Source: Rickettsiales bacterium | Lineage (GTDB): Bacteria > Pseudomonadota > Alphaproteobacteria > Rickettsiales > UBA998 | Direction: 5' to 3' | Length of the DNA stretch: 64,000 nt | Assembly: GCA_024304995.1 (NCBI GenBank) | Contig: JAMWZD010000001.1 | Coordinates: forward strand, 385,472 to 449,471 | Part shown: positions 4,590 through 59,599 of the stretch, piece after piece | Numbering within the stretch: the first letter of the stretch is position 1 | How the letters are laid out: each line of letters opens with the position of its first letter | Made by a program: the position numbers and the translations under genes | Notes under the pieces: model-generated | Seen by the model: the letters and a program-made list of their open reading frames with translations, nothing else | The model's database searches: none | Told to the model about the DNA's origin: nothing

Positions 4590-7500
4590 TGAAACAGTTT
4601 TTCAGATTTTTACTTGCTACATGTCTTTCGGTTGTTCTGTTTCTGGCAGGACTTATTGCCCTTGCTTACGGTGCATTGCAAACACCTTACGTGAAAGACC
4701 ATCTGGCAGAAATGGCAAGCAACCTTGCGAGCAATGAACAACAGACCATTCAGATTACCGATATTCAAGGACATGTGCCGTGGGATTTCTCTGTTCCCTC
4801 CATTACCATAGCAGATGCAGACGAGGTATGGCTGCGCATCAATGCGCTTCGCATAGACTGGCATCCTCTGGATTTGCTGAAATACACACTGCATATTGAT
4901 CAGCTTACTGCAGATGAAGTGATCATTTCACGCGCGCCCAACGCGCAGGAGCAGGAAGAACAGGCTGAAAGCACACCGCTGACCTCCCTGCCCGACCTTC
5001 CTACGCTGAATATCGGCACAATAAAAAGCCCGCATATTGCGCTTCCAGCTGCATGGATGGGGGGTAAAGATACGCTATGGACACTGGAAATTACTGGAAC
5101 GGACATAAATGCATTGCAAGGGGCATTGCGCACTAAAGACACACAGGCAGATACATCTCTCACTTTTCTGGCGGATGTAGAAGACGCAATAACATTAGAT
5201 ATCAAATTGCAGGATGATGCTGGCGGAGTGATCAACCGCATTGCAAATTATCCCGAGCAACGCCTTTCTGCCAGCATCACTGCTGAAACCAGCAATAATC
5301 TGGCAACCGCAGGGCAGGCAGTAATCACATTGGGTGATACTCAGGCGCTGGACGCAACATTTTTAGTTGCAGATGTTATTACACTGGAAGCAAATGGCAC
5401 ATTGCCAGAATTTGTTCGCCCGCCTTTCACATTTGATTCACACGACTGGACACTGAATCTGAATGCGCAACAAAATGATGCGTTGTGGACAGTTAGCGAT
5501 GCTAAAGCAACATATGGGAACGCAATGCTCAAAGCTGCAGGCGGAGTTAATCTGGAAGATGAAACATTTGCTTCACCTGAATTACTGCTGAGCATTGACG
5601 ACCTATCTCCTTACGCAGAAAATATAAGCGGTAATCTGCGTCTGTCTGCTGTTATTGACGGAACATTTGATGATACTAATGCGCAGATTAATCTCTCCAG
5701 TGACAGCATTAAAACAGGAGATACCCGACTTGCTGCACCTGCTGCAAAATATTCGCTGGCTACATCCTTAAATGCATGGCTGGAAGAAGGCTGGGCGGCA
5801 TCTGACTTTGCGTTGCAGGCAGGCACTGCACTGAATGACCAGAATATCAGCCTCTCTGCCAAAGGAGAGACGCAGCAAAACCGTGTGATTGCAATTAATT
5901 CACTGAAAGCAACCACGCCTTATGCTACGGCGACAGGCACTTTATCTTATGGGCTGGAAAATGGTGCTATTAAAGCAGATATTAATGCAGACCAGCTTCG
6001 CTTAGCAACGCTGACAAATGGGCAGATAAAAGGCACGCTGAATGCCAATGCAAAGGCAGATGGCACACTGGAAAAACTGCCTGTATCCCTCAGCGCATCT
6101 GCAACCAACCTGCAGGGCTTGCCTGACGCTGTGTCGCATTTAATTGCCAATAGCGCCAGTCTGGATGCGAACAGTGTGATTACGCCAAAAACAGTTACTA
6201 TTGATAAGGCAGAATTGTCATCAGGCTCACTCAACGCCATTGTAAAAGGGGCAATTCCACTGGAGCCAAAAGATGCCCCTGCCCCGCTGACATTGTCTAT
6301 CACACATCCGAATTATGCTGCCATCAATGCCAGCACAGAAATGCAGCAATTGCCTGAAAAACTGGTGCTGCGTGACATTGTTTTTAACACGCAAGGCACG
6401 AAAGCAAGTGGCACATTGAACGTGATGCAGCCAAGCGGGTTGCTGGATGGAAATGTAAACATCAATAGTAGCAACATCGCACCTTTGCTTGCATGGGGCA
6501 ATATGCCACGTGCGGAAGGGGCTATGCGGGCGGATATTGCATTGAAAGCCAGCAAACAACAGGCATTCAATGCACAGATCAATGCGGATAATATTATTAT
6601 ACCCAAACAGCAATTAGCCATAGAAACACTCTCTCTTGATGCTTCCTCTCCAAATCTTTCACAACTGGATCAGATGAATATTGCCCTGCAAAGCAGTGAC
6701 ATTCGAAGCAATGATCTGCTCTTACAGACCTTGCAAGTGGCTCTGACACCCTATCAGAATGCCTCGGCATTTGATATTTCACTGGATGGCGCGCAAGCAG
6801 GAAAACCTGTAACATTATCCAGCACAGGTTTAATTGCGTCTCAGCAACAACAGACGGACGTTACATTAAACACGCTGAACGGAAAATATGACTTACTGCC
6901 GTTTGAATTGCAGCGCCCAACCGCATTATCACTGAATCAGAATAATATTACATTGCAGGATACATTGCTGAAGCTGGATGACGGCACATTGCAGCTAAGC
7001 GCACAAAAAACTGCGCGCACTGTGGAAGCGATGCTGAGACTCTCAGACATGCCGCTTTCACCATTGCTCAGCAGCGCAGGTGGTTCACTGCCTCCTGCCA
7101 TTGCTAATGCTACGATTGCAATAAATGGTGCGTCAGCAAAACCTGTTATCCAGACAGACGCAACAATCACTGCAGATATTCCAGGTGATGCACCAAATGC
7201 GAAGATCAATATCACCAGCAACTGGAACAATGCACAGCCTACCCCTGTGATCCGCAATGACATCAGCATGAGCATGAAACAAGAGGTGATTACGGGCAAC
7301 GTCTCTGTGCCTGCCAGTCTTTCCCTGCAACCTTTTGCGTTTAATATGAACGATAATGCACCGCTTGATGGCGCACTGACAGCAGATATGAGCCTGAACG
7401 AATTTGATGGTTGGACAAAACCGCTCGGACACCAGATTGCAGGACTATTGAAAGCAAATATGGCATTGCAGGGCACAGTGGCAGAACCAGACTTTAACGG

Positions 7501-8620
7501 CACTATGGATTTAAGCAACCTCACCTATGACCATCTGCGTTATGGCGTGTGCATTCGTGAAGGTGAAGTCAGCGCAAATTTCAAAAAGGATGAAATGCTG
7601 ATTGCCCGCATTTCTGCACAGGGGCATCGCCGCAAGGGGACGCTGGATGGCAAAGGAAAAATCAATTTTACGAATGGAGACATTACCAGCAATCTGGATA
7701 TGAATAAACTCGCTATTTTCTGTCAGGGAATGGCGGAAGGGCAGATTGCAGGCACAATGAGCGTGAACGGAAAGCTGACTGATATGCTTGCCAAAGGAGA
7801 TATTGCTCTTGGACCATTAGATATTTATATTCCAACAGGTGGTGCGGAAACGATTAAAACAGTGGATTATGTCTATCAGAGTGATTTAAAACGCCAGAAA
7901 GAAGATGCACTGATTGCACTGGATATTAACGTCAATATTCCTGAGACAGTATATGTTCGCGGGCGCGGACTGAACGCAGAGCTTGGCGGTGGCGTGCATG
8001 TTACGGGGTCTGCCACCAACCCCAAAATTGAAGGCAAATTCACCACTGAACGTGGCTCTTTAGAATTTCTCGGTTCTAATCTCAGCATTAATGACGGATA
8101 TGTACGCTTCATTAATCAGAATCCGTCTAAGCCGTATGTCTATCTGGAATCAGATGCCTCTGCTGATGGGGTTGATATTGATTTCACCATTAAAGGCCCT
8201 GCCAGTGACCCCAAATTCACCTTTGGTTCTTCTCCAAACCTTCCAAAAGATGAAATTCTTGCCTTGCTGTTATTCGGCTCTCGCCTGAATGAGATCACAC
8301 CATTTCAGGCATTGCAGCTTGCCAGCGCGGCAGCAAGCCTTTCTGGCAAAGGTGGCGGCGGTGTAGGGCTTCTGGGTTCCACGCGAGATAAATTAGGGCT
8401 GGATGCATTAAATGTGGATGTGGATGAAACAGGCTCAGCCACAGTGGGCGCAGGAAAATATCTGACAGATAAGGTCTATGTTGGCGTGGAACAGGGCACG
8501 CAACCTGGCAGCAGGCGTTTCACAACTGAAATTGAAGTCACTCCGAGCATCACGGCAGAAACCTCGACCACGCAACAAGGAGAGCCGACGGTTGGTGTGG
8601 AATGGAAATATGATTATTAA
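4589..8620 (+). CDS. tamB: Translocation and assembly module protein TamB (DUF490)
   Basis: 1343 aa with an N-terminal anchor helix, a long beta-rich repetitive body and a DUF490-like C-terminus (...LSGKGGGGVGLLGSTRDKLGLD...GKYLTDKVYVGVEQG...). Follows tamA. Confidence 0.8.
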   Translation: MKQFFRFLLATCLSVVLFLAGLIALAYGALQTPYVKDHLAEMASNLASNEQQTIQITDIQGHVPWDFSVPSITIADADEVWLRINALRIDWHPLDLLKYTLHIDQLTADEVIISRAPNAQEQEEQAESTPLTSLPDLPTLNIGTIKSPHIALPAAWMGGKDTLWTLEITGTDINALQGALRTKDTQADTSLTFLADVEDAITLDIKLQDDAGGVINRIANYPEQRLSASITAETSNNLATAGQAVITLGDTQALDATFLVADVITLEANGTLPEFVRPPFTFDSHDWTLNLNAQQNDALWTVSDAKATYGNAMLKAAGGVNLEDETFASPELLLSIDDLSPYAENISGNLRLSAVIDGTFDDTNAQINLSSDSIKTGDTRLAAPAAKYSLATSLNAWLEEGWAASDFALQAGTALNDQNISLSAKGETQQNRVIAINSLKATTPYATATGTLSYGLENGAIKADINADQLRLATLTNGQIKGTLNANAKADGTLEKLPVSLSASATNLQGLPDAVSHLIANSASLDANSVITPKTVTIDKAELSSGSLNAIVKGAIPLEPKDAPAPLTLSITHPNYAAINASTEMQQLPEKLVLRDIVFNTQGTKASGTLNVMQPSGLLDGNVNINSSNIAPLLAWGNMPRAEGAMRADIALKASKQQAFNAQINADNIIIPKQQLAIETLSLDASSPNLSQLDQMNIALQSSDIRSNDLLLQTLQVALTPYQNASAFDISLDGAQAGKPVTLSSTGLIASQQQQTDVTLNTLNGKYDLLPFELQRPTALSLNQNNITLQDTLLKLDDGTLQLSAQKTARTVEAMLRLSDMPLSPLLSSAGGSLPPAIANATIAINGASAKPVIQTDATITADIPGDAPNAKINITSNWNNAQPTPVIRNDISMSMKQEVITGNVSVPASLSLQPFAFNMNDNAPLDGALTADMSLNEFDGWTKPLGHQIAGLLKANMALQGTVAEPDFNGTMDLSNLTYDHLRYGVCIREGEVSANFKKDEMLIARISAQGHRRKGTLDGKGKINFTNGDITSNLDMNKLAIFCQGMAEGQIAGTMSVNGKLTDMLAKGDIALGPLDIYIPTGGAETIKTVDYVYQSDLKRQKEDALIALDINVNIPETVYVRGRGLNAELGGGVHVTGSATNPKIEGKFTTERGSLEFLGSNLSINDGYVRFINQNPSKPYVYLESDASADGVDIDFTIKGPASDPKFTFGSSPNLPKDEILALLLFGSRLNEITPFQALQLASAAASLSGKGGGGVGLLGSTRDKLGLDALNVDVDETGSATVGAGKYLTDKVYVGVEQGTQPGSRRFTTEIEVTPSITAETSTTQQGEPTVGVEWKYDY

Positions 8621-31972: not shown

Positions 31973-32997
31973 AGCGCGTGCAACGCCTCCGCGCTGAGCT
32001 GACCAGATTCCTGTTGCAGCACTTTTCCTGCTACCTTATGTCCCAGCTTTAGCGATGTTTCTTCGTCATAACCACGAATTAACCCTGAACACACACCTGC
32101 CATATAAGCATCACCTGCGCCCAGTGTGCTGACCACTTTTTCCAGCGTTTCGGGTGCAGCATGATATGCGCCTGTCTGGTTCACCAGCATGGCAGGGTGT
32201 TCACCACGTGAGATAATCACGCATGGCATATCATGATGTGTGCGCATCCAGTCAAAGATTGTCTGACAACCTTCTTCAAATGCGGTTTTATCAGATTCCA
32301 TTAATGCATAAAGCTCATCATCATTGCCGCACACCAACGCTGCATGGCGCTTGATAGTGTCTATCATCTTCGCACGATGCTGAACCACCTGTTCCGCGCC
32401 AAACAAGGTGAAGCCAATGTCGGTATTATGTTTTTTTGCCAGCGCAATTAAATCATCCCACAATATATAACCTTGTGGCAGTGCCAGCAATTCACCTTCT
32501 AAAATAATCAGGTCCGCGTCTTTTATGTCATCTTCAATGTCACTTGCCGCAAAGGCAGACATGCTATCACCGAAATAACGCCCAATCGCACGTTCTCCGC
32601 GCGAATCGGTGCATACGTAAGACCGTGATGTTTCTGTGCCGTAAGCATGATGTGGCAACAGATCAATATGTGCAGTTTTCATGGCATCACCAAAAATAGC
32701 ACCATATTCATCATCCGCACAGGCAGCGACAAATTTGATTGTCACGTCTGCGCATAAGGCTTTCATCGCACAGGCACTATTTGCGAGCGACCCTCCAGCC
32801 ACCGTTTCATTATTATATTCCTGAAGATGTTTTTCAATTTCGCGCACCAGCTTGCTGTCCATCAATGAGCGGTCATTGTAAGACATGCCGAACATCTGCA
32901 CGGCTTCAGGGCTCATGCCATCAATCAGAATGTCTGCAACGGGCATACCAATGCAGAGAATCTCTCTTGCCTGAGACAACACGGAATTATGCGCCAT
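31969..32997 (-). CDS. PfkB family carbohydrate/nucleoside kinase (adenosine kinase-like)
   Basis: GGSLANS N-terminal motif and C-terminal TLGAGDAYMAGV (the PfkB GAGD motif). Confidence 0.8.
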   Translation of the reverse strand: MAHNSVLSQAREILCIGMPVADILIDGMSPEAVQMFGMSYNDRSLMDSKLVREIEKHLQEYNNETVAGGSLANSACAMKALCADVTIKFVAACADDEYGAIFGDAMKTAHIDLLPHHAYGTETSRSYVCTDSRGERAIGRYFGDSMSAFAASDIEDDIKDADLIILEGELLALPQGYILWDDLIALAKKHNTDIGFTLFGAEQVVQHRAKMIDTIKRHAALVCGNDDELYALMESDKTAFEEGCQTIFDWMRTHHDMPCVIISRGEHPAMLVNQTGAYHAAPETLEKVVSTLGAGDAYMAGVCSGLIRGYDEETSLKLGHKVAGKVLQQESGQLSAEALHAL

Positions 32998-35018
32998 TAT
33001 GCTGCATCCTCTTCTTCTTCACCCACTGGGCCGAACTCAACCATAATGCTTTCTGCGCGCACGCTTTCACCTGCTTTAACGTGCAGTTTAGTAACGATGG
33101 CATCTTGCTCTGCGCGGAAAATATTTTCCATTTTCATTGCTTCTATCACCAGCAGTTCCTGCCCTGCAAACACCTTATCACCCTCTTTAACATTTACAGA
33201 ACTCACCAGACCTGTGATAGGTGATTTCAGTTGCCCGCTATCATCATCATCGTCTTTTTCAGGCATGTGAATGGCAAGCTCTGCCACGCGCGGAGTGCGC
33301 ACTTTCACCTGCTTTTCTGCTCCGCCATAATGCAATTCAAACCCTTCAATAATCGGGCGAATAACCACGGAAACTGGTTTATCATTAACCGTTCCCTGAA
33401 ACAGGCGACGACCCAGATCCCAGCTGGAACGCACCGTGGCGACCCCTGTGCCAAAGCTGATATCGTATCCACCATCCACCTTATGGGCGATGATAGGATA
33501 GTCGCTTTTGTCAATATGCACCACCCAGCGCGAACCAATCACACGGTTATAGCCTGGCAACTGACCTGAGGTTTGTGACGCACGCTCTGCATCTTTGAGA
33601 TATGCGAATACACCCACCCCAACAAACACGCGCAAGAGCGATTCATTCAGCGCCGCTGCTTCATATCCATCAGGATATTCCTGCGAGATGAAATTGGTGG
33701 AAATGTCTGATTTTTCAAAACGCTCATGCGCTAAAATAGATTGCAGGAAACTGATATTATGCGCCACCCCTTCAATTACAAAAGAAGAGAGTGCATCTTT
33801 CATTAAATCCAGCGATTCCTGACGGGAGGCAGCATGGGTGCAGACCTTTGCAATCATCGGGTCATAAAACATGCTGACTTCACCACCGCCATACACACCA
33901 GAATCCACAATAATTTTTTTGCCGTCTTCTGGTTCTGGTTCTTCGTAACGGCTGACGCGCCCAATAGAAGGCAGGAAAGAGCGTTTTGGGTCTTCTGCAT
34001 AGACACGGCTTTCAAATGCCCAGCCGTCAAACGTCACATCTTTTTGCGTGACAGTTAAACGCTCGCCATAGGCGGCACGGATCATCTGCTCAACAATGTC
34101 GATGCCAGTGATGAGTTCGGTCACGCGGTGTTCCACCTGCAAACGTGTGTTCATCTCAAGGAAATAAAAGTTCTTCTTATCATCCACGATGAACTCAACC
34201 GTTCCCGCCGTGTGATAATCCACCTTTTTTGCCAGCGCAACGGATTGCTTACCCATTTTGGTGCGTAAGGCATTATCCACAAACATGCTCGGCGCTTCTT
34301 CAATCACTTTCTGATGACGGCGCTGAATGGAACATTCACGCTCCCCCAGATGCACTACATTGCCATGTTTATCGGCGATAATCTGAATTTCAATATGGCG
34401 GGGATTATCAAAGAATTTCTCAATAAAGACTCGCGCATCACCAAAGCTGGAACGCGCCTCTGACGATGCCAACCGCATCCCGTCTTTCAGCTCAGACTCG
34501 TCACGCACAATGCGCATACCCTTTCCGCCGCCGCCTGCTGCGGCTTTAATCATGACGGGATAGCCGATTTTTGACGCCTGTTTTTTTGCGTCTGCCAGTG
34601 TGGAAACGGCATCTACCCCACCAGGCACCACATTCACGCCCGCCTTTTTCGCCAGTTTCTTGGATTCAATCTTGTCACCCATAGATTCAATCGCATTTGG
34701 CGAAGGACCGATCAGTGTAATGTTACGTTTTGCCAGCGTTTTAGCAAAATCTGCATTCTCAGAGAGGAAGCCATACCCAGGATGCACTGCTTGCGCCCCT
34801 GTCTGGTCAATCGCGCTTAAAATGGCTTTGACGTTCAGATAACTCTCAGAAGATGGTGACGGACCAATGTAAATTGCCTCATCTGCCTCTTTCACGTGGC
34901 GTGCATTCGTGTCTGCCTCAGAATAGACCGCAACGGTTTTAATCCCCATTTTGCGGCAGGTTTGCATGACACGAAGGGCGATTTCACCCCGATTGGCGAT
35001 AAGAATTTTGCTAAACAT
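32997..35018 (-). CDS. Biotin-dependent acyl-CoA carboxylase alpha subunit (biotin carboxylase + BCCP; propionyl/3-methylcrotonyl-CoA carboxylase-like)
   Basis: MFSKILIANRGEIALRV..., an ATP-grasp domain, and C-terminal EAMKMEN (biotinyl-lysine). Confidence 0.85.
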   Translation of the reverse strand: MFSKILIANRGEIALRVMQTCRKMGIKTVAVYSEADTNARHVKEADEAIYIGPSPSSESYLNVKAILSAIDQTGAQAVHPGYGFLSENADFAKTLAKRNITLIGPSPNAIESMGDKIESKKLAKKAGVNVVPGGVDAVSTLADAKKQASKIGYPVMIKAAAGGGGKGMRIVRDESELKDGMRLASSEARSSFGDARVFIEKFFDNPRHIEIQIIADKHGNVVHLGERECSIQRRHQKVIEEAPSMFVDNALRTKMGKQSVALAKKVDYHTAGTVEFIVDDKKNFYFLEMNTRLQVEHRVTELITGIDIVEQMIRAAYGERLTVTQKDVTFDGWAFESRVYAEDPKRSFLPSIGRVSRYEEPEPEDGKKIIVDSGVYGGGEVSMFYDPMIAKVCTHAASRQESLDLMKDALSSFVIEGVAHNISFLQSILAHERFEKSDISTNFISQEYPDGYEAAALNESLLRVFVGVGVFAYLKDAERASQTSGQLPGYNRVIGSRWVVHIDKSDYPIIAHKVDGGYDISFGTGVATVRSSWDLGRRLFQGTVNDKPVSVVIRPIIEGFELHYGGAEKQVKVRTPRVAELAIHMPEKDDDDDSGQLKSPITGLVSSVNVKEGDKVFAGQELLVIEAMKMENIFRAEQDAIVTKLHVKAGESVRAESIMVEFGPVGEEEEDAA

Positions 35019-40454: not shown

Positions 40455-41085
40455 GCAATGCGTTGCACTTGCAGTCATGTTCTTCATGGTTGCGTGCGCG
40501 CACAAGCCAGAACCATCTGCGAATCTCATTCAGCGTGATTGCAAGATTATTGCCCGCGCACCTTCTGCGGAAGCGGTGGATTTTAGCCAGCCTAATATGT
40601 GTTTGTCTTATATTTCTGGGTTGATAAGTGGTGAGCTGACTTCTTCAACCTATATTTGGGGATTTATCAGAAATATGGAAATGAATGGTGTCTATCAATA
40701 TGGTTCTGATACACCACATGATGAAAAGTTGGCGGAACATACAAAACTGTTCCTTTCTGATTTGGAGAAAGAAAAAAATGAACGATTTTGTATTGCTGGA
40801 GAGATTCGCACTATTATAGAAAATGCAGAGAACGCTGATGATAAATACATAGTATTTAAGGCTATAAGAATTATCTATTATCGGTTAGCTAAAGTATTAG
40901 CTTTAAGCTGGGAACTTGACAAAACACCACCTGACGGCGAAATCGATAATGAACATCTAAAATATTTCAGACACCACTTAGGCTATGCATTTACAAATAT
41001 TTACAATCACAGTATTTTCTGCAAAGCTCTAACTGGAGAATTAGAGCACAAATTTGAAGAAAATAGTGACCTGTTTAAGCACTAA
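40447..41085 (+). CDS. Putative lipoprotein, four-Cys family, paralogue 1
   Basis: ATG 40447 gives [17 protein letters not shown] (lipobox-like). Shares [39 protein letters not shown] with the next gene. Confidence 0.6.
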
Positions 41086-41091
41086 ATAATC

Positions 41092-41697
41092 ATGAAACAT
41101 TTTATCACTCTTTTAGCCTGCACCATGTTGCTTTTCAGCAGCGCCTGCACACCAAAGCCAGAACCATCTGCAAATTTGATTCAACGTGATTGCAAGATTA
41201 TAGCCAGCGCACCTTCTGCGCAGGATGTGGATTTTAGTCAGCCTAATATGTGTTTTTCTTATATTTCGGGGCTGATTAGTGGGGCAGCAAACTCAGCATC
41301 TCGCATTGGTTCGTTTATGGCGTTCCCCTATCACCTGCCTGCAGACACATTTAATCCAGAGGACGGTTCAAGCATACCCCCTAGCAAAGATGTGGTTGAC
41401 GAGCATAACCGCATTTTAAATGATTTAGAAACAGTATTCGATGAAAGCTTTTGCATCGCCCGCTATTTTGAAAAAGAAACTGAAAATAAACTCGAATATA
41501 ATGGAGACATTCGTTTCCTCAGACCTATCTACTATAAGTTAGCTAAAGTTTTGACTGCAATAGGAGATACGTCATTGATTGCAGAAAACAACGGAACAAA
41601 AGATACACAAGATGATTATCTCAAACCACATGCAAATTTAATTTTTAATCATGCATATGATTATCACTCTATTTGCGAAGCACTAAACAAATCGTAA
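41092..41697 (+). CDS. Putative lipoprotein, four-Cys family, paralogue 2
   Basis: MKHFITLLACTMLLFSSAC lipobox. Cys positions (RDC, NMC, FCIA, SICEA) are conserved with paralogue 1. Confidence 0.65.
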   Translation: MKHFITLLACTMLLFSSACTPKPEPSANLIQRDCKIIASAPSAQDVDFSQPNMCFSYISGLISGAANSASRIGSFMAFPYHLPADTFNPEDGSSIPPSKDVVDEHNRILNDLETVFDESFCIARYFEKETENKLEYNGDIRFLRPIYYKLAKVLTAIGDTSLIAENNGTKDTQDDYLKPHANLIFNHAYDYHSICEALNKS

Positions 41698-48532: not shown

Positions 48533-48552
48533 TTAGGGTCACATGAGCAATC

Positions 48553-48632
48553 GTCATACTGAGCGCAGCGAAGTATCCAGAGCGGCTTGCGCCTGACGGA
48601 GAGATGGATTCTTCACATTCGTTCAGAATGAC
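48553..48632. repeat. Palindromic REPIN/MITE-like element, copy E (intact, 80 bp)
   Basis: Left arm gtcatactgagcgcagcgaagtatcc (48553-48578); right arm ggattcttcacattcgttcagaatgac (48606-48632). Confidence 0.85.
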
Positions 48633-48684
48633 GACTATTTTTACTTTAGTCGTGACCTGTTTCTATGTGTAGCGGATTTTGCGC

Positions 48685-48704
48685 ATCATGCAAGGATAGA
48701 CTTG
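48685..48704 (+). repeat. 20-bp direct repeat, left copy, bracketing the AIPR-like islet
   Basis: atcatgcaaggatagacttg is identical to 50258-50277. Confidence 0.8.
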
Positions 48705-48904
48705 TGCATTACACTGAATCAAAAATATTGTTTGACATTAAGGCTAAATTTCGTTCTACTGTTTATAGAGACATGGATTTGTTTCTGTAAATTTAAAACC
48801 TAGGAACTGGTTTTGGGATATGTTTGGCTGGATAGCTTATTATGTTTACAAGGGTTTTCCCTTTCCAAATCTGGTTCTCCAAAAATTAAAATGGAGAATT
48901 TCAA

Positions 48905-50215
48905 ATGAAATCACAAAAAATTATTATTCGGTTTGATCAGGTTTGCGATCAGAACAACGGCGTAATCAAGCGCTACATCGGATTTGTGCAAGCTAAATAC
49001 TTAATAGACTTAATAGAGATAGCTAATCTTGATGCTAACCCTAGATCATCAAAAGTTGGTTCTGTAACTGATGATATTATTGAGAGCATAGAAAAAACTA
49101 CTGATATTTTCCCCTTCAAAACTAAAGGTATATTAGTGTCTGTTTCAAAGCCTCCAAAAGAGCTAGAGCGAAAACGGTTTGAATTTGAGTTTGAAGATAA
49201 TCAATTTGATGGCATATTAGATGGTGGACATAATACTTTAGCCATCGCTATTTATATATTGTATAAAGCTGTCGAGGATCATAAAGCGATTAGAAAAATC
49301 AAAAGATGGCAAGATTTAGAAGAACGATGGATTGATTATAAAGATGAAGTTCAAAAAATTAAAGATACTTTAGATTTTCTTGTACCTATTGAAATATTAG
49401 TTCCAAATGACCAAACAGAAGAAGTGGTAGAACAATTTAAAAAGTCGATATTAGATATATGTGCGGCGCGTAATAATAATGTCCAACTAACAGTTGATAC
49501 GAAAGCCAATGCAGCAGGACATTATGAAATAATAAAAGATGTTGTTGATCCCACACTAGAAAAAGAAATTATTTGGAAAACCAATACGGAAGGACGTATT
49601 CCTGTAAGAGATTTGGTTGCTTTAACCTGGGTGCCATTACTGGAGTTAGAGTTGGAAGGCAAAGTTCCGACCATATCACCAGTTCAACTTTACAGTTCAA
49701 AAGCAAAATGCATGCAAAATTTTGTAAAGCTAATGGAGAGCCCGGATGTTTCAACCGAAAAAGAAGGTAGATATACGTTGAAAAATAGTCAAGTTGAGAG
49801 TGCTTTAAAAATGTTGGAGGACATGCCAAAACTGTATGACTTAATATACGAACTATTTCCAGGCGCTTATAATAAGCATGGAGGAAAGTTTGGACGTATA
49901 AATGCTGTTAAAGAAAAGCAAAAAAGTCAGCCAAAAACACCTTTCTATTACAGAGAAGTTGATATGAGCGTTCCAGAAGGTTTTATTGTACCACTAATTT
50001 ATGGTACATCAGCTCTGATTACTTCAAAAAACGGACGGCTCGCTTGGAAAGAAGATCCTGAAAAATTTATAAGAAAAAACATTAGTAATATAATTGCTAA
50101 TTATAAAACATTACTAGAGGCATTTAATTTTGATCCTCAAAAAGTAGGAAAAAATAGTGGCTCTTATACTTTAGCAAAACAGCAATTTGAGTTTTGCTTA
50201 TTACAAAATCAGTAA
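48905..50215 (+). CDS. AIPR-like (abortive infection phage resistance) protein
   Basis: 436 aa. LDANPRSSKVGSVTDDIIESIEKTTDIFPFKTKGILVSV followed by ILDGGHNTLAI matches my recollection of the AIPR pattern (NxR...I..T...F...NNGIT...NGxQT). GGAG lies 8 nt upstream of the ATG. Very AT-rich. Confidence 0.55.
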   Translation: MKSQKIIIRFDQVCDQNNGVIKRYIGFVQAKYLIDLIEIANLDANPRSSKVGSVTDDIIESIEKTTDIFPFKTKGILVSVSKPPKELERKRFEFEFEDNQFDGILDGGHNTLAIAIYILYKAVEDHKAIRKIKRWQDLEERWIDYKDEVQKIKDTLDFLVPIEILVPNDQTEEVVEQFKKSILDICAARNNNVQLTVDTKANAAGHYEIIKDVVDPTLEKEIIWKTNTEGRIPVRDLVALTWVPLLELELEGKVPTISPVQLYSSKAKCMQNFVKLMESPDVSTEKEGRYTLKNSQVESALKMLEDMPKLYDLIYELFPGAYNKHGGKFGRINAVKEKQKSQPKTPFYYREVDMSVPEGFIVPLIYGTSALITSKNGRLAWKEDPEKFIRKNISNIIANYKTLLEAFNFDPQKVGKNSGSYTLAKQQFEFCLLQNQ

Positions 50216-50230
50216 CAGCTTGAAAATAAT

Positions 50231-50259
50231 AAAGGGCAGGGCAAAAACCTGCCCTTTAT
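50231..50259 (+). terminator. Terminator hairpin after the AIPR-like gene
   Basis: Perfect 10-bp stem aaagggcagg/cctgcccttt (50231-50257) with loop gcaaaaa and a weak U-tail. Abuts the right direct repeat. Confidence 0.5.
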
Positions 50260-50277
50260 CATGCAAGGATAGACTTG
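50258..50277 (+). repeat. 20-bp direct repeat, right copy
   Basis: atcatgcaaggatagacttg is identical to 48685-48704. Confidence 0.8.
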
Positions 50278-50296
50278 CACCAAATTTCAGATTACG

Positions 50297-51772
50297 ATGC
50301 TTGCCATGATTTTAGACGATTTTTCATTAGCTGACGCTCAACAACTTGGCTCTCGCCTGCCGAATGACCCACATGCCGTGTCTGCTGCGCTGCCCGCATG
50401 GCAGGATGTGCTGGATTATGAGGAAGGACGCGCGCGCGTAACAAATGCGCTCAACACAGCCTATCCGCGTTTCATGTTCCATCCATTGGTGAATGCACTG
50501 GCAGAACATATCCGCAAGGAATTTACACTGGGGGATGCGTATTTAACGCTTTACCCGACCTATGACAGCGCGATGGATGCCATGCGCTTTATCAAAAAGT
50601 CCTGCTCGGCTTATGCGGAAATTATTGTGGATACGCAAAAGAATCTGTATGTCTGCTGCACGGGAAAGGACGGCGCAGCTCACTCCAAAGCGCACTGGCA
50701 GCATACAGGTCTGGGCATTTCCTCCCGCCATGCAGAACGTGCCTTGCGCGGGCAAGTGGCAGCGGATGCGTCTTTTAAGAAAATGGAGATCATCCGCACA
50801 ATCGCCAAAGGCGCAGGCGTGGCAGACGATGCCATTACGCTGCACCCGACAGGCATGAGCGGGCTATATATGGCATATAGGCTGGCGCAACAGGTGAAGC
50901 GTGGCGACACGGTGCAGCTTGGTTTCCCTTATGTGGATACGCTCAAAATCCAGCAAAAATGGGGAACGCATGTGCATATGCTGGATGACGCGGGGGACTA
51001 TCTGGCAAAGCTGGAAGCACTCTTCAAAGCACACAGCATTTCCGCCTGCTTCACCGAATTTCCAACCAATCCCCTGCTGCGCGCGATAGACATCAAAGCA
51101 GTCAGCGCCTTGTGCCGTGCGCATGGCGTGTTGCTGATTGTGGATGATACGATTGCGACCTATAATAATATAGACGTACGCGCTTATGCAGATATACAAT
51201 GCACCAGCCTCACCAAAGGCTTCTCTGGCAAAGGCAATGTGATGGCAGGGGCGATGATGATTCACGCGGATGCACCACATACGCAACGTCTGCTGAATGC
51301 GCGTGATGAGCTTTATGAAGATACACTTCACGCGGATGATGTGCGGGTGCTGTGGCAGAATATGTCTGGTGTTGAGGCGCGGATGATGCGCATGAATGCG
51401 AATGCAGCGGAGTTGGTGCAATATCTTAAGGCGCATGAAGCAGTGGATGCGGTATATTATCCGAGCATCATGCATCAGGCATTATATGATGCCGTGAAAA
51501 CGGAGCATGGCGGATATGGGTGCTTGCTGTCTTTCACACTGAAAGACGCAGACAATGCCCCTGCATTTTATGATGCTTTGTGCATCTGCAAAGGCCCCAG
51601 CCTCGGCACAGAATTTACTTTGTGCTGCCCCTACACATTGCTTGCGCATTATGATGAATTAAATTGGGCGCAGGGTTACGGCGTATCCTCGCACTTGCTG
51701 CGCGTGTCTGTCGGGTGTGAAGACATAAGCGAGATTATCGCACGGTTTGAAGCCTCATTTTCTCAAAAATAA
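50297..51772 (+). CDS. Cys/Met-metabolism PLP-dependent enzyme (cystathionine gamma-synthase/beta-lyase family, long form)
   Basis: 491 aa. DDTIATYNN...CTSLTKGFSGKGNVMAG (the SxTK PLP-lysine motif of the trans-sulfuration family). Confidence 0.75.
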   Translation: MLAMILDDFSLADAQQLGSRLPNDPHAVSAALPAWQDVLDYEEGRARVTNALNTAYPRFMFHPLVNALAEHIRKEFTLGDAYLTLYPTYDSAMDAMRFIKKSCSAYAEIIVDTQKNLYVCCTGKDGAAHSKAHWQHTGLGISSRHAERALRGQVAADASFKKMEIIRTIAKGAGVADDAITLHPTGMSGLYMAYRLAQQVKRGDTVQLGFPYVDTLKIQQKWGTHVHMLDDAGDYLAKLEALFKAHSISACFTEFPTNPLLRAIDIKAVSALCRAHGVLLIVDDTIATYNNIDVRAYADIQCTSLTKGFSGKGNVMAGAMMIHADAPHTQRLLNARDELYEDTLHADDVRVLWQNMSGVEARMMRMNANAAELVQYLKAHEAVDAVYYPSIMHQALYDAVKTEHGGYGCLLSFTLKDADNAPAFYDALCICKGPSLGTEFTLCCPYTLLAHYDELNWAQGYGVSSHLLRVSVGCEDISEIIARFEASFSQK

Positions 51773-52927: not shown

Positions 52928-53980
52928 CTAGAAATCTTCTATTTCTTTTGCATCTTCTTTTTTTAAAGCTCTAAGCCTTACCATTCGCTCGTCTCCCAAA
53001 GATGTTAAAGTCCAATATGCTGAAGTATCTTGTATGCTCCTCTTCTTAATACTTTCTTTTATTAAACAAAGTGCTCTGAGCTGTATTATAATTGTATCTA
53101 TGTAATGATTTGCAACTATAGTTTTATCAACGTTCAGTTCTTTATAAGGGTGCTCGTAACAAAAATTAGCGACTTGTCCTAAAAAGTTCTCTATTTTTTT
53201 TCTCAACGCAAAATCCCTTATTTCGTTTATCATGCACGGAGAAATATTCACAAAGATATAATCCCAGCTTACATCAATTTGTATTTTGTGTTTGATACTT
53301 TCTGCATACATTCCTTTATAAAACTTAAGTGTAACTTCTACTGTAAACTTGTCCTTACCTTGCGCTAAATCATTGATATTTTCAGGCGTTGCAGAATTTG
53401 ATTTTGCAATTTTATTTTCTAAATCTGAAATTGTACTTTTTAATTGTAAAATTTCTTTCAATGTAGACTCTTTTGGAACCAAGTCTGCCTTGACCCACCC
53501 TATAGCAGGTTTACGTTTAATTGTTTTAGTTACACCCAATATAACTTGAGATTGTAAACCATCCGCATCTGCCCAATAAACACAGCTATGCTTACTTTCT
53601 ATTTTTTTTCTAAATTCGACGAGTTTTTTTAAAAGTTCTGGGTCTTTTTCGGTTTTACCTGCTGGAATTGCATCTGGGTCTTTATGCAACAAAGGAATAA
53701 CTGCCTTCTTTTTAGAAACCGCATAATCATATTCTTTCTCAGTATAACCTATACCCTCTTTATCAGTTGAGCCATAACGTCCACCAATAATAAGCAAATA
53801 ATAGTCCGATGCATCAATTACATCTTTTATCAAATCCCATGATGAATCATCAGTTGCAGGAAACAACTCCATGCCAGCAGGCATATGCTCCAATTCAAGA
53901 ACTGACTTAATAACATTCTGTCGTTCTTCTACCAAATCAACAAAAGTCGATGATATAAATATTTGATATTTCTTGTCCAT
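52928..53980 (-). CDS. DUF4062-domain protein (TIR/nucleoside-deoxyribosyltransferase-like N-terminal domain + coiled coil + unknown C-terminal domain)
   Basis: Start at rc ATG 53978-53980: MDKKYQIFISSTFVDLVEERQNVIKSVLELEHMPAGMELFPA...YYLLIIGGRYGS...GYTEKEYDYA matches the DUF4062 consensus (FISStf.DL..eR...mE.F.a...G.rYG..TE.Ey). Extremely AT-rich. Confidence 0.7.
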   Translation of the reverse strand: MDKKYQIFISSTFVDLVEERQNVIKSVLELEHMPAGMELFPATDDSSWDLIKDVIDASDYYLLIIGGRYGSTDKEGIGYTEKEYDYAVSKKKAVIPLLHKDPDAIPAGKTEKDPELLKKLVEFRKKIESKHSCVYWADADGLQSQVILGVTKTIKRKPAIGWVKADLVPKESTLKEILQLKSTISDLENKIAKSNSATPENINDLAQGKDKFTVEVTLKFYKGMYAESIKHKIQIDVSWDYIFVNISPCMINEIRDFALRKKIENFLGQVANFCYEHPYKELNVDKTIVANHYIDTIIIQLRALCLIKESIKKRSIQDTSAYWTLTSLGDERMVRLRALKKEDAKEIEDF

Positions 53981-57004: not shown

Positions 57005-57019
57005 GCTCCCCACGCCCCC

Positions 57020-57045
57020 GTCATTCTGAACGAAGTGAAGAATCC
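57020..57045. repeat. REPIN/MITE-like element copy F, left arm
   Basis: gtcattctgaacgaagtgaagaatcc, 15 nt after the sucA stop. IS200 sequence starts immediately after it. Confidence 0.8.
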
Positions 57046-57703
57046 ATAAGATAATAAGGAACTACCGCCTATGGCGGTACGGCTAGCGTAGTTATACAAA
57101 TTATGCAAGAAACCTCTTTGCTTGAGCCATTGGAGTGGTTTGAGGAATCAAACAAAGAGGTTTTTATTATGTCAGAAATTAGAAGATTATCTCACAGTCG
57201 CTGGGAATGCAATTATCATGTGGTATTTATTCCAAAATACCGCCAGAAACGGATATATGGCGATGTTCGCAATGAATTACGTCAAGTGTTTCATGATCTG
57301 TGTCACCGTAAGGAATGTCGCATTATTGAAGGTCACCTGATGTCCGACCATGTGCACATGCTTATCAGCATACCACCGAAATATTCTGTAGCACATATAG
57401 TAGGTTACTTAAAGGGGAAGACCGCCCTACATTTAGCGCAGAAATATGGACGTAGGAGGAAATATCGAGGCTATAGTTTCTGGGCGCGAGGGTATTTTGT
57501 ATCTACTGTAGTTGCAGACGAACAGGTCGTTAGACGTTACATTCGCAATCAGGAGAAAACGGACAAGCAGTACGACCAAATGTCCTTGTTCACTGAACCC
57601 AATAATAGTAAGTAACAAAACCACTTCCAGTGGTGCAAGCAAAGCGTTACAGACCTCCACCTCTGGTGGAGGTCATTGAATCTTTCGGTTTGTTTTAAGC
57701 TGG
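57046..57703 (+). mobile_element. IS200-type insertion sequence (IS200/IS605 family, tnpA only); ends approximate
   Basis: The Y1 HUH transposase gene is flanked by subterminal hairpins taccgcc-tat-ggcggta (57063-57079) and gacctccacc-tct-ggtggaggtc (57652-57674). No tnpB. Confidence 0.75.
57169..57615 (+). CDS. tnpA: IS200/IS605 family Y1 (HUH) transposase TnpA
   Basis: From ATG 57169 (GAGG 8 nt upstream): SHSRWECNYHVVFIPKYRQK...SDHVHMLISIPPKYSV...GYLKGKTA...FWARGYFVSTV. Close in pattern to Salmonella IS200 TnpA (HTRWNCKYHIVFAPKYRR...DHIHML...FWCRGYYVDTV). Confidence 0.9.
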   Translation: MSEIRRLSHSRWECNYHVVFIPKYRQKRIYGDVRNELRQVFHDLCHRKECRIIEGHLMSDHVHMLISIPPKYSVAHIVGYLKGKTALHLAQKYGRRRKYRGYSFWARGYFVSTVVADEQVVRRYIRNQEKTDKQYDQMSLFTEPNNSK

Positions 57704-57787: not shown

Positions 57788-59599
57788 GTGATGAGTGAAC
57801 AAGCCAGCATAGCCAATATTGATATTCAGCCAGATGACCCTGAATGGCTGGTGCTAAAGAAATTTTGTGAGACATTTGATTCTAAACGCATGAAAGAAAA
57901 ATACGCCTGTTCTAAAACTCACAAAATACTTGATGATAATGCTTCTCGCAGAAACGGCTTTATTTCTTGGAATTTTGTATGCTTTTTTACTGTATCGAAT
58001 GAAGCGCAACAACGTATTGCTCCTGAACTAAAACGCTGGAGCCCTTGGCTTTATTCAATATTAGAAAATGTTCTAAATGACCCTTCATACCAAAATGATC
58101 TTAATAATTATTATAACTCATTTATAGATATTCGTAACAAAAGCTACACTTTGGATATGGCAATCTCTATAATTGAAGGAAAGCTTAATAAACATAGCTT
58201 AGATTATGAAATGCCACCGCTTTCACGAATATGCAATATAGAAACTAAATATTTATTTAAGGATGGTACACAGTTAGATTTTTCTGATTACATATTTTTA
58301 TGTGAATTAGGTTTTTCTGGCAACAAAAACAATCCCTATCGCGCCATAGAAGAAAAAAAAGAATCAAATATATTTAAAGCAGCGACGAAACATACCAAAA
58401 ATTTTAGTTTAAAACGCAATTACTGTTATGGTGGGATATATTTCGGTGTATGCGGATTTGAAAAGATAAATCTAAATGGTCTTCATACAACAAATCTTCA
58501 CTTTATATGCAATGAAGCTAACTATATAACGTTGGCTAATATCAAATGTCATTGGTTTAAGCACGAAACTGACAACACTAATAGTATAGATAAATTAGAA
58601 AAAACCGATATTCCTTTCTTATTTATACATAATATATCAAATAAATTTGAACATATAGATATATCTAATCGGCGCATTCGATTATCAATAGATAGTAACA
58701 CGGAAGTCAGAACGTTAAATTTCTTGAATGTAGTTATTGAGAATGACGTTCAATTTGCAAATTTAGAACTTGAGCACGCAACATTTAGCAGTGTTATATT
58801 TGAATCTGATTTTTCTTTTTTGCAAAACACCGTAGAGAAAACTACATACTTCAGGCATTGCAGCTTTAAAGAATCCTCTAATTTCAAAGGCAGTAAGTTT
58901 TCATGTAATGAACTAAATGAAAAATCATTATCCAATAGAGATGAATTGCTGTCTCCTTCTTTCATCAATTCAAATTTTCAATCGGTTCTAAATTTGAAAG
59001 ACACTAATTTTCATGCTCCTCCTCATTTTGAGGGAGTAGAAGCAGATTGTGTGTTATTCGATGAAAAGTCATCCTTCATCAACCACCCTAGCAAAGACCC
59101 AGAACTTGCTGCATCAGCATGGGCATCGTTAGTGCGGCTGGCAGAGCATACGGGCAATATGCGGATGCGTCAGTTATTTCACGCACGCATGATGGAAAAC
59201 GAAAAACGTATGGCAAGCGAAAAAAGTCATGGCTTTTTCTATCATGTATTTCGTATATTAGGAAGCGGCAGAAATACGCTAGTTCCTATAGCATTCTTGC
59301 TTTTGTCTTTTATATGCTTTGGATTGATTTATATGACAAGCTATCTTGCGATAACACCTGAAAAGATAGCGCCACTATATGCAAATGCATTTGATAATGG
59401 ATTTGCACTATCTATGCAGCACACCGCACCCTTCTTTCCAACTGAAAAAGCACTATTGAAAAATTTGCTTCTCCCCTTCAAAGAAAGTCCTATAAACTAT
59501 TTCATCAATTTAGCCCGCTTCGTTCAAACGATTCTCTCAATAGGCTGCATCTTCATGTTCGGTCTCTCCCTCCGCAACCGCTTCCGCATCAAAACCTAG
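57788..59599 (+). CDS. Degenerate pentapeptide-repeat (beta-helix)-like protein with C-terminal transmembrane helices
   Basis: 603 aa. The middle region has F/L-periodic repeats (VQFANLELEHATFSSVIFESDFSFLQNTV..TYFRHCSFKESSNFKGSKFS). C-terminus is ILGSGRNTLVPIAFLLLSFICFGLIY...ILSIGCIFMFGLSLRNRFRIKT. GTG 57788 or ATG 57791 start. AT-rich. Confidence 0.55.
   Translation: MMSEQASIANIDIQPDDPEWLVLKKFCETFDSKRMKEKYACSKTHKILDDNASRRNGFISWNFVCFFTVSNEAQQRIAPELKRWSPWLYSILENVLNDPSYQNDLNNYYNSFIDIRNKSYTLDMAISIIEGKLNKHSLDYEMPPLSRICNIETKYLFKDGTQLDFSDYIFLCELGFSGNKNNPYRAIEEKKESNIFKAATKHTKNFSLKRNYCYGGIYFGVCGFEKINLNGLHTTNLHFICNEANYITLANIKCHWFKHETDNTNSIDKLEKTDIPFLFIHNISNKFEHIDISNRRIRLSIDSNTEVRTLNFLNVVIENDVQFANLELEHATFSSVIFESDFSFLQNTVEKTTYFRHCSFKESSNFKGSKFSCNELNEKSLSNRDELLSPSFINSNFQSVLNLKDTNFHAPPHFEGVEADCVLFDEKSSFINHPSKDPELAASAWASLVRLAEHTGNMRMRQLFHARMMENEKRMASEKSHGFFYHVFRILGSGRNTLVPIAFLLLSFICFGLIYMTSYLAITPEKIAPLYANAFDNGFALSMQHTAPFFPTEKALLKNLLLPFKESPINYFINLARFVQTILSIGCIFMFGLSLRNRFRIKT

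Follow-up and report, generated by a model that had tools for sequence, protein, structure and literature searches.

The question raised by this locus is how a solitary AT-rich gene came to lie between eno and the gene for a pyridoxal-phosphate (PLP) enzyme, and what its product might do. The locus belongs to a 64-kb stretch of Rickettsiales bacterium DNA (64,000 nucleotides, the whole of which is called the window here), and it was originally predicted, from the letters alone, to be a self-contained single-gene defence cassette bracketed by a perfect 20-bp direct repeat. The comparisons reported below make it likely, in our judgement, that the DNA between the repeats is a horizontally acquired cassette of 1,553 bp, inserted with a 20-bp duplication into a native palindrome, and that its product is a divergent AIPR protein with a defence-type role. 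Coordinates are positions in the window; repeat counts cover the window, two Logan assemblies, and collections of metagenome and viral contigs.

Repeats, insert boundaries and the empty site

The 20-mer ATCATGCAAGGATAGACTTG occurs as exact copies at 48685–48704 and 50258–50277. No third copy was found in the window when up to 3 mismatches were allowed, which agrees with the earlier observation that the pair is otherwise absent there. None of 100 dinucleotide-preserving shuffles yielded two matches to the 20-mer, and among exact direct repeats of at least 20 nt spaced within 8 kb the pair is the sole case in the window. The 20-mer was not found in the metagenome or viral contig collections. The insert proper (48705–50257, 1553 bp) has a GC content of 0.334, compared to 0.478 and 0.475 in the two 3-kb flanks, and the GC content at third codon positions (GC3) of the enclosed 436-aa gene is 0.238 versus 0.49–0.63 for eno, the PLP-enzyme gene, pyrF and sucA. 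The shift in composition falls exactly at the repeat edges. The claim that the repeats enclose one 436-aa open reading frame (ORF; 48905–50215) in AT-rich DNA was thus confirmed. Both repeat copies recur in identical arrangement in two independent Logan assemblies from separate sequencing runs (L001 and L002), and an assembly artefact is excluded on this basis. Within the insert, a leader of 200 bp is followed by the single gene and by a hairpin at the 3' end; the features of the locus are as follows.

48662–48684, no strand: native spacer left of the insertion, TTCTATGTGTAGCGGATTTTGCGC, conserved with the related contig L027
48685–48704, + strand: left 20-bp direct repeat, attL-like or left target duplication (exact match; its 5' flank is the flank of the single L027 copy)
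48705–48904, + strand: 5' non-coding part of the insert (read from the sequence)
48905–50215, + strand: divergent AIPR (ParB/Srx-like) gene, 436 aa (ORF, homologue alignments, BLASTP, AlphaFold2 model, Foldseek)
50229–50259, + strand: terminator-like hairpin at the 3' end of the insert (fold energy)
50258–50277, + strand: right 20-bp direct repeat (exact match; its 3' flank CACCAAATTTCAGATTACG can be aligned to the spacer in the related contig L026)

The insert begins with TGCATTACAC... and ends with ...CCTGCCCTTT, and there is no inverted repeat between the two ends. In the leader, a candidate promoter can be read as TTGACA (48732–48737) and TCTACT (48755–48760) with a 17-nt spacer; it is not listed by the promoter scan because TCTACT breaks the scan's position-2 rule. 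A GGAG Shine-Dalgarno sequence (48893–48896) lies ahead of the 436-aa gene. At the other end, the hairpin has a 12-bp stem (50229–50240/50248–50259), and the 70-nt stretch 50216–50285 folds at −28.3 kcal/mol (z = −5.4). The terminator hairpin that had been described as abutting the right repeat is therefore present as a strong hairpin, but it overlaps the repeat by its last 2 nt, and with a tail of only a short UUU it failed the terminator scan on the + strand and was flagged on the minus strand only. The right repeat lies 19 nt 5' of the first ATG in the PLP-enzyme ORF and, together with the next 2 nt, makes up a native palindrome, TGCAAG-N6-CTTGCA, which appears as a small hairpin in the fold.

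Comparison with related loci identified the origin of the repeat. Relatives with a 73–74% identical PLP enzyme were found in two metagenomic lineages (L027 and L026/L025), both of which keep the divergent eno/PLP gene pair without an AIPR-like gene, as expected from the proposed single-gene insertion between the two. The eno/PLP spacer of L027 is 109 bp long and holds, at the homologous place, a single copy of the 20-mer (19/20 identical, ...GTAGAGTATTTTGCGCATCATGCAAGGATAGACTTA...), which is the empty site that had been called for. The 5' flank of this copy, ATTTTGCGC, is the flank of the left copy in the window, and together with 19 nt of the 20-mer it forms a 28-nt identical run (9944–9971 in L027). 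At the diverged site of L026/L025, the 3' part, GATTAGACTTCAACTAATTTTCATATTACG, can be aligned to the sequence flanking the right copy in the window. Once the insert is deleted in silico, alignments of the window spacer to both L027 and L026 are obtained, and TATGT(T)GTAG.G.ATTTTGCGC is common to the window and L027. The repeat is therefore native sequence that was duplicated on insertion of 48705–50257, and the locus is a real insertion, with 20 bp duplicated, at a native site that is conserved. The repeats had been proposed to be either a duplicated target or att-like sites, and a native duplication fits both descriptions (target duplication or att core); in matching a single-copy site in the empty L027 spacer, they have the relation to it that is expected of an att site.

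The sequence of the native site, ATCA-TGCAAG-GATAGA-CTTGCA, is palindromic (6-6-6), and the first PLP ATG follows about 19 nt downstream. Its conservation between lineages suggests that the palindrome may be a regulatory site; a convincing sigma-70-type promoter was not identified in this conserved native block. The eno/PLP spacer is occupied differently in the three related genomes, and the different insert carried by L026/L025 marks it as a recurrent insertion hotspot. In these contigs (4308–4757 in L026, 9552–10000 in L025) the spacer holds an unrelated AT-rich ORF of 69 aa on the minus strand, without a Pfam match. The window spacer also carries a ~100-bp element resembling repetitive extragenic palindromic (REP) sequences, which is absent in L027. 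The host is an uncultured alphaproteobacterium, in whose chromosome the cassette lies. The best named relatives of its sucA are from 'Alphaproteobacteria bacterium' (77%) and 'Rickettsiales bacterium' (62–65%), and a closer lineage (P0390) has a 96% identical sucA. An exact search with eno gave only the same strain, and a scan of the species-level genome collection with the PLP enzyme returned only relatives of at most 41% identity, from Verrucomicrobia and cyanobacteria, so that the host species is not represented there.

The encoded protein and its relatives

The family of the 436-aa protein was assessed by sequence searches, alignments and structure prediction. Searches against the Pfam, NCBIfam and PADLOC models, of the kind proposed with the original prediction, gave no match for the window protein, even at E≤1, and a PHROGs scan returned nothing useful. 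The protein does not reach the gathering threshold of the AIPR profile PF10592 (25 bits). This profile is touched, weakly, by 18 of 25 close homologues (19–35 bits, best 4.8e-7), mostly over profile positions 1–74 and in a few cases over 1–274 of 308. By BLASTP, residues 45–434 of the window protein match the Terribacillus protein WP_041592334 with E=4e-27, and the latter itself scores 108 bits on PF10592; tblastn against plasmids led to regions that the Prokaryotic Genome Annotation Pipeline (PGAP) labels 'AIPR family protein' (E=6e-19 and 4e-18). The motifs of the window protein are N45-P46-R47, T73-K74-G75, D106-G107-G108-H109-N110 and A188-R189-N190-N191-N192. In a joint alignment of the subfamily with canonical AIPR proteins, P46, G75, G103, D106-G107-G108-H109 and A188-R189 are invariant, and the NPR, DGGH and ARN motifs are common to the window protein and canonical AIPR-only proteins. 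On the strength of the BLASTP and tblastn matches, the PF10592 matches of the homologues and the invariants of the joint alignment, the window protein is a divergent AIPR homologue, probably of the ParB/Srx superfamily and DndB/DUF262-like, and the earlier family call is upheld.

Two further remarks made with that call did not survive. GGHNT had been taken to stand in place of the usual motif; canonical AIPR proteins carry the same DGGH(T), as in GNVDGGHT of the Terribacillus protein, so that, judged from the alignments, DGGH is an ordinary AIPR motif and not a variant. Nor is a stand-alone AIPR protein out of the ordinary, AIPR-only proteins of 397–400 aa being annotated on plasmids. The subfamily is distinguished by ~40 additional residues, helical and with a conserved W..LK..W, that are inserted behind the DGGH helix, and by a divergence large enough for it to be missed by all curated models. 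The AIPR-like region spans the entire window protein, leaving no HEPN or other toxin domain.

The subfamily is large. A word-indexed search gave 1,866 matches, the nearest homologue being 62% identical and from other lineages, and a profile search of 1.8 billion cluster representatives gave 1,109 matches at E≤1e-3, of which 234 reached E≤1e-30; almost all are stand-alone proteins of 440–490 aa. The size of the subfamily is thus ~1,100 clusters at 50% identity. Its members, including copies on Roseomonas plasmids, carry the PGAP label 'hypothetical protein'. As Pfam, NCBIfam, PADLOC and PGAP leave the subfamily unnamed, annotation and defence censuses under-count it. Among the homologues, P0247 (2054 aa) has its family part at residues 1589–2050, preceded in the same chain by a UvrD-type helicase and a PD-(D/E)XK nuclease, and P0248 and P0335 have N-terminal extensions of ~170 aa that could not be assigned to any family.

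Structure prediction yielded a confident AlphaFold2 model (predicted local distance difference test score 90, predicted template modelling (TM) score 0.84). The first Foldseek match in BFVD is a viral AIPR protein (E=6.8e-7, TM 0.50/0.57), as anticipated from the family call, followed by GmrSD-N (DUF262) proteins (E=7e-4 to 8e-3, probability 1.0) and, further down, by DndB-like (E 0.04) and ParB-like proteins. AbiU1/AIPR/COG1479 has been described as a ParB-superfamily nuclease domain linked to restriction-modification (R-M) systems (PMC3632139; PMC3506569), and the Foldseek ranking agrees with this published placement.

The closest type among known proteins are the short AIPR-only proteins of Terribacillus goriensis plasmid pT1 (WP_041592334, 397 aa) and Lactiplantibacillus plantarum (WEZ96328, 400 aa). 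The window subfamily differs from them in falling below the Pfam and NCBIfam thresholds, in the ~40-aa insertion, and in its surroundings: a divergent helix-turn-helix regulator adjoins both plasmid AIPR genes, whereas none is found beside the window subfamily. According to the literature, AbiU1, or long AIPR, and DndB share the ParB-superfamily core and the linkage to R-M systems (Makarova et al. 2012, 2013; PMC3506569, PMC3632139). The window protein has neither a HEPN domain, which is N-terminal in long AIPR, nor another toxin domain, and no dnd genes lie near the window gene. The models of PADLOC-DB 2.0 include abortive-infection systems, and none of them matches the window protein. By the Foldseek matches, of which that to ParB-N in the PDB is not significant, the predicted fold also resembles DUF262/GmrSD-N and ParB-N, with an Asp-Gly-x-His/Gln motif at a strand-to-helix junction. 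It is DGGH in the window protein as against DGQQR (DUF262/GmrSD-N) or GERRxR, and the protein has neither a DUF1524/HNH nuclease domain nor a match to them at the sequence level.

Defence role and route of insertion

The surroundings of the homologues were examined with regard to function. P0002 is immediately preceded by a Type ISP R-M gene and followed by Thoeris thsB/thsA, P0026 lies between two toxin-antitoxin pairs, and P0085 is on a MobA/TraD element, adjoining an integrase; P0032 is a solitary AT-rich gene beside a Dam-methylase fragment, and the Roseomonas copies lie among insertion sequence (IS) elements on plasmids. When the two nearest ORFs on each side were surveyed at 44 distinct metagenomic and viral loci (140 ORFs), the commonest neighbour families were Type_ISP_C (6), Eco57I (6), N6_Mtase (5), Helicase_C (5), ResIII (4), Phage_integrase (4) and GmrSD_C (3). 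Type ISP/Eco57I/N6_Mtase neighbours were present in at least 6 of the 44 loci, and also at L016. The family gene usually has a lower GC content than its surroundings. These contexts are the pattern of a defence-island cargo gene, and the recurrent Type ISP neighbourhood suggests a candidate partnership.

The course of events that we favour can be set out as follows. A foreign cassette entered TGCAAG-GATAGA-CTTGCA in the short divergent spacer between eno and the gene for a Cys/Met-metabolism PLP enzyme, ~19 nt upstream of the latter, and 20 bp of the native site were duplicated on insertion. The product would be a stand-alone or R-M-assisting factor directed against phages or mobile DNA, a role towards which we lean slightly. 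NPR, TKG, R91, DGGHN and ARNNN are predicted to form a nucleotide/phosphate-binding pocket typical of ParB/Srx domains, which could be used for binding or hydrolysis of nucleoside triphosphates or for nicking or cutting of nucleic acids, and the helical C-terminal half may provide target recognition or oligomerisation/assembly. For the integration itself, a site-specific recombinase acting in trans, with the palindrome as att core, is proposed tentatively, as somewhat short of an even chance. Capture at a staggered break with fill-in is rather more doubtful, and a transposase-type duplication is, with other routes, less likely still.

The cassette shares features with core-genome hotspot cassettes and with integrase-less, cis-mobilisable att elements, namely a single accessory gene amid housekeeping genes, direct repeats of native sequence on both sides and the lack of a recombinase in cis. 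It differs from that class in being very small (1.55 kb) and in its target, which is an intergenic palindrome and not a tRNA or tmRNA gene; neither a cognate integrase nor a second instance of the cassette was found. The filled and empty sites form a well-defined small case for how single accessory genes enter core-gene spacers.

A number of observations weigh against this account. The attribution of abortive infection or defence to the window gene derives from the family name and from context, so that of the predicted defence cassette the single-gene cassette stands, while its defence part is without an R-M neighbour here; the neighbours are eno, the PLP-enzyme gene, pyrF and sucA, with no other defence gene, and the window as a whole consists of housekeeping genes. 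In addition to the missing Pfam, NCBIfam and PADLOC matches of the window protein, canonical AIPR proteins gave no PADLOC match either, and no PADLOC family was hit at E≤1 by the window protein and five relatives; since the PADLOC result is null for canonical AIPR too, no experimentally validated defence system anchors the function. The phage genome collection contained no family member. In the C-terminal half, which is helical, the homologue alignments revealed no recognisable catalytic motif. Foldseek against the PDB returned nothing significant (the top match was a ParB-N domain with E=0.7), and sequence-profile searches of the PDB with two alignments detected no solved relative. The insert encodes the AIPR-like ORF alone and no recombinase, as had been predicted; no integrase lies within ~10 kb of it, and the only transposase is that of an IS200-like Y1 gene (57103–57615). 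The insert likewise has neither terminal inverted repeats nor a hairpin at its left end. Finally, the sole clean empty site is from a different species (73% PLP-enzyme identity), and precise loss via recombination between repeats is inseparable from primary absence.

Instead of acting in defence, the protein could be a ParB/DndB-like DNA-binding or regulatory factor of mobile elements, with a role in, for instance, maintenance, Osa-like fertility inhibition or anti-restriction, that now resides in the chromosome as inert cargo. The predicted ParB/Srx-type fold, the homologues on Roseomonas plasmids and on the MobA/TraD/integrase element, the missing PADLOC match and the description of DndB, the nearest named relative, as a regulator (PMC3506569) all fit such a role. 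We nevertheless consider it unlikely, as homologues repeatedly lie beside Type ISP R-M, GmrSD, Thoeris and toxin-antitoxin genes, a typical defence-island setting, and the gene has no partner parA, no centromere-like repeats and, in a Pfam scan, no detectable helix-turn-helix domain. A still smaller chance is given to a reading in which the locus exposes something unrecognised. Here single defence genes would be moved in a novel way, the minimal, recombinase-less module (leader, gene and terminal hairpin) being integrated in trans into a conserved palindromic operator-like site with duplication of 20 bp, possibly as an inserted copy of an mRNA, a variant suggested by the exact coincidence of the right boundary with the hairpin-plus-UUU end expected of an mRNA; or the ~1,100-cluster subfamily would be a distinct, unannotated class of ParB-like effectors working with Type ISP restriction enzymes.

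The repeats can also be explained in other ways. That they are a chance or regulatory/REP-type motif and no insertion footprint is very improbable: a dispersed REP-like element does occur in the same spacer (48535–48645), but the shuffles, the lack of a third copy in 64 kb at 3 mismatches and the composition break at the repeat edges all speak against it, as do the single L027 copy with the left flank and the match of L026 to the right flank of the right copy. If the cassette were ancestral and lost from the relatives, recombination between 20-bp repeats 1.57 kb apart would leave one copy, exactly as in L027, and the empty site would be a deletion scar. This we regard as improbable in view of the GC3 of 0.238, compared to ~0.5–0.6 in all neighbours, which argues for a recent foreign origin. 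The nearest homologue is moreover only 62% identical and from other lineages, in L026/L025 the single site has diverged and the small insert is another one, and an original insertion that created the repeats would be required anyway. About equally improbable is a true target-site duplication by a transposase with a 20-bp staggered cut, possibly linked to the Y1 transposase 7 kb away. The duplicated sequence is native target DNA, a Y1_Tnp gene is at hand and the right end of the insert forms a strong hairpin, but terminal inverted repeats and a left-end hairpin are missing, flanking repeats are absent from the window's other AT-rich islets, and those of the family have no constant length across ~55 distinct family loci. 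Known target duplications are mostly 2–15 bp, and 20 bp is longer than usual.

Several known mechanisms were rejected. Flanking repeats above chance were present at 3 of ~55 distinct family loci (64 examined), and measured 20 bp (window), 16 bp (L021/L044) and 33 bp exact within ~110 bp imperfect (L117–L119); with only three such loci, of differing lengths and contexts, a family-specific transposition mechanism is out. The marks of an IS, a transposon or a miniature inverted-repeat transposable element, namely terminal inverted repeats and a short duplication of constant length over the ~55 loci, were not found, and an integron attC was rejected for want of a GTTRRRY core. Against an IS200/IS605 or REP-associated transposase stands the lack of a left-end hairpin; such transposases are not known to make a target duplication. 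An element exploiting Xer recombination at dif (IMEX) was set aside because the XerD arm does not match: compared by hand with E. coli dif, the XerC-arm-like part agrees at 8/11 positions and the XerD arm at 1/11. The intergenic spacer that holds the site is also conserved in L027, and there is no GC-skew switch.

At L021/L044, the perfect 16-bp direct repeat TCGCCATCTGTTGCGC (5629–5644 and 7594–7609) surrounds another family member, with a GC content of 0.54 compared to 0.64 in its flanks, on a MobA/TraD element; the right repeat is inside the 3' end of the adjacent tyrosine integrase gene. The repeat of the viral contigs (5778–5890 and 7369–7480 in L119; also in L117 and L118) flanks a 34%-identical AIPR homologue together with a small ORF, and corresponds to an intergenic hairpin/promoter-like (terminator/promoter) region. 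This arrangement suggests shuffling of modules via repeated regulatory sequences.

The locus is, overall, a conventional and fairly ordinary small islet with an unusually clean footprint, and its gene belongs, as a divergent member, to a family that is known but uncharacterised. AIPR is widespread, with no known mechanism and no solved structure detectable by sequence; the invariant residues (N45-P46-R47, K74, D106–H109 and R189–N192), together with the confident model, provide a shortlist for mutagenesis. The findings are in line with what is expected of defence islands; nothing in them contradicts expectation, and specialists will find no surprise.

Other features of the window

The REP-like palindromic element, with the core CGTCATWCTGARCGHAGCGAAG, has 7 copies in the window versus 0 expected (48535–48645 and at 1894, 9367, 20949, 27960, 28018 and 57019). 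The Logan assemblies break at the copy in the eno/PLP spacer. The IS200-like Y1 transposase gene (57103–57615, + strand; 170 aa, PF01797, E=1.5e-38) begins ~60 nt past the copy at 57019–57040, and gene and repeats look like a REP-associated tyrosine transposase with its repeats. The Y1 gene is directly followed by an ORF of 603 aa (57788–59599, + strand) without a significant Pfam or PADLOC match, located where the AT content of the window is highest (GC 0.30–0.35).

Between pyrF and sucA lies a second AT-rich islet with a single gene (52928–53980, minus strand; GC ~0.31–0.36, GC3 0.254). The product is a DUF4062 protein (PF13271, E=1.4e-28) that matches the phage family phrog_15411 over the full length (E=7.8e-102), and the islet has no flanking repeats. 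Downstream of pyrF, the relatives carry a 336-aa ORF and Fic (L026) or a glycosyltransferase (L027).

Two other direct repeats were noted. An AT-rich stretch contains a 140-nt repeat of 86% identity (40492–40631 and 41143–41282, 651 bp apart), and a perfect 16-bp repeat (32432–32447 and 34225–34240, 1,793 bp apart) lies around a biotin carboxylase gene, the latter near chance expectation (~0.1 per window).

The PLP enzyme (50297–51772, + strand) has, besides the relatives of the two 73–74% lineages, closest homologues of only ~40–48% identity. Its best species-level matches are from Verrucomicrobia and marine cyanobacteria, and the named matches of the protein search include Patescibacteria, Rickettsiales and Planctomycetaceae. 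An N-terminal extension of ~200 aa precedes the Cys_Met_Meta_PP match.

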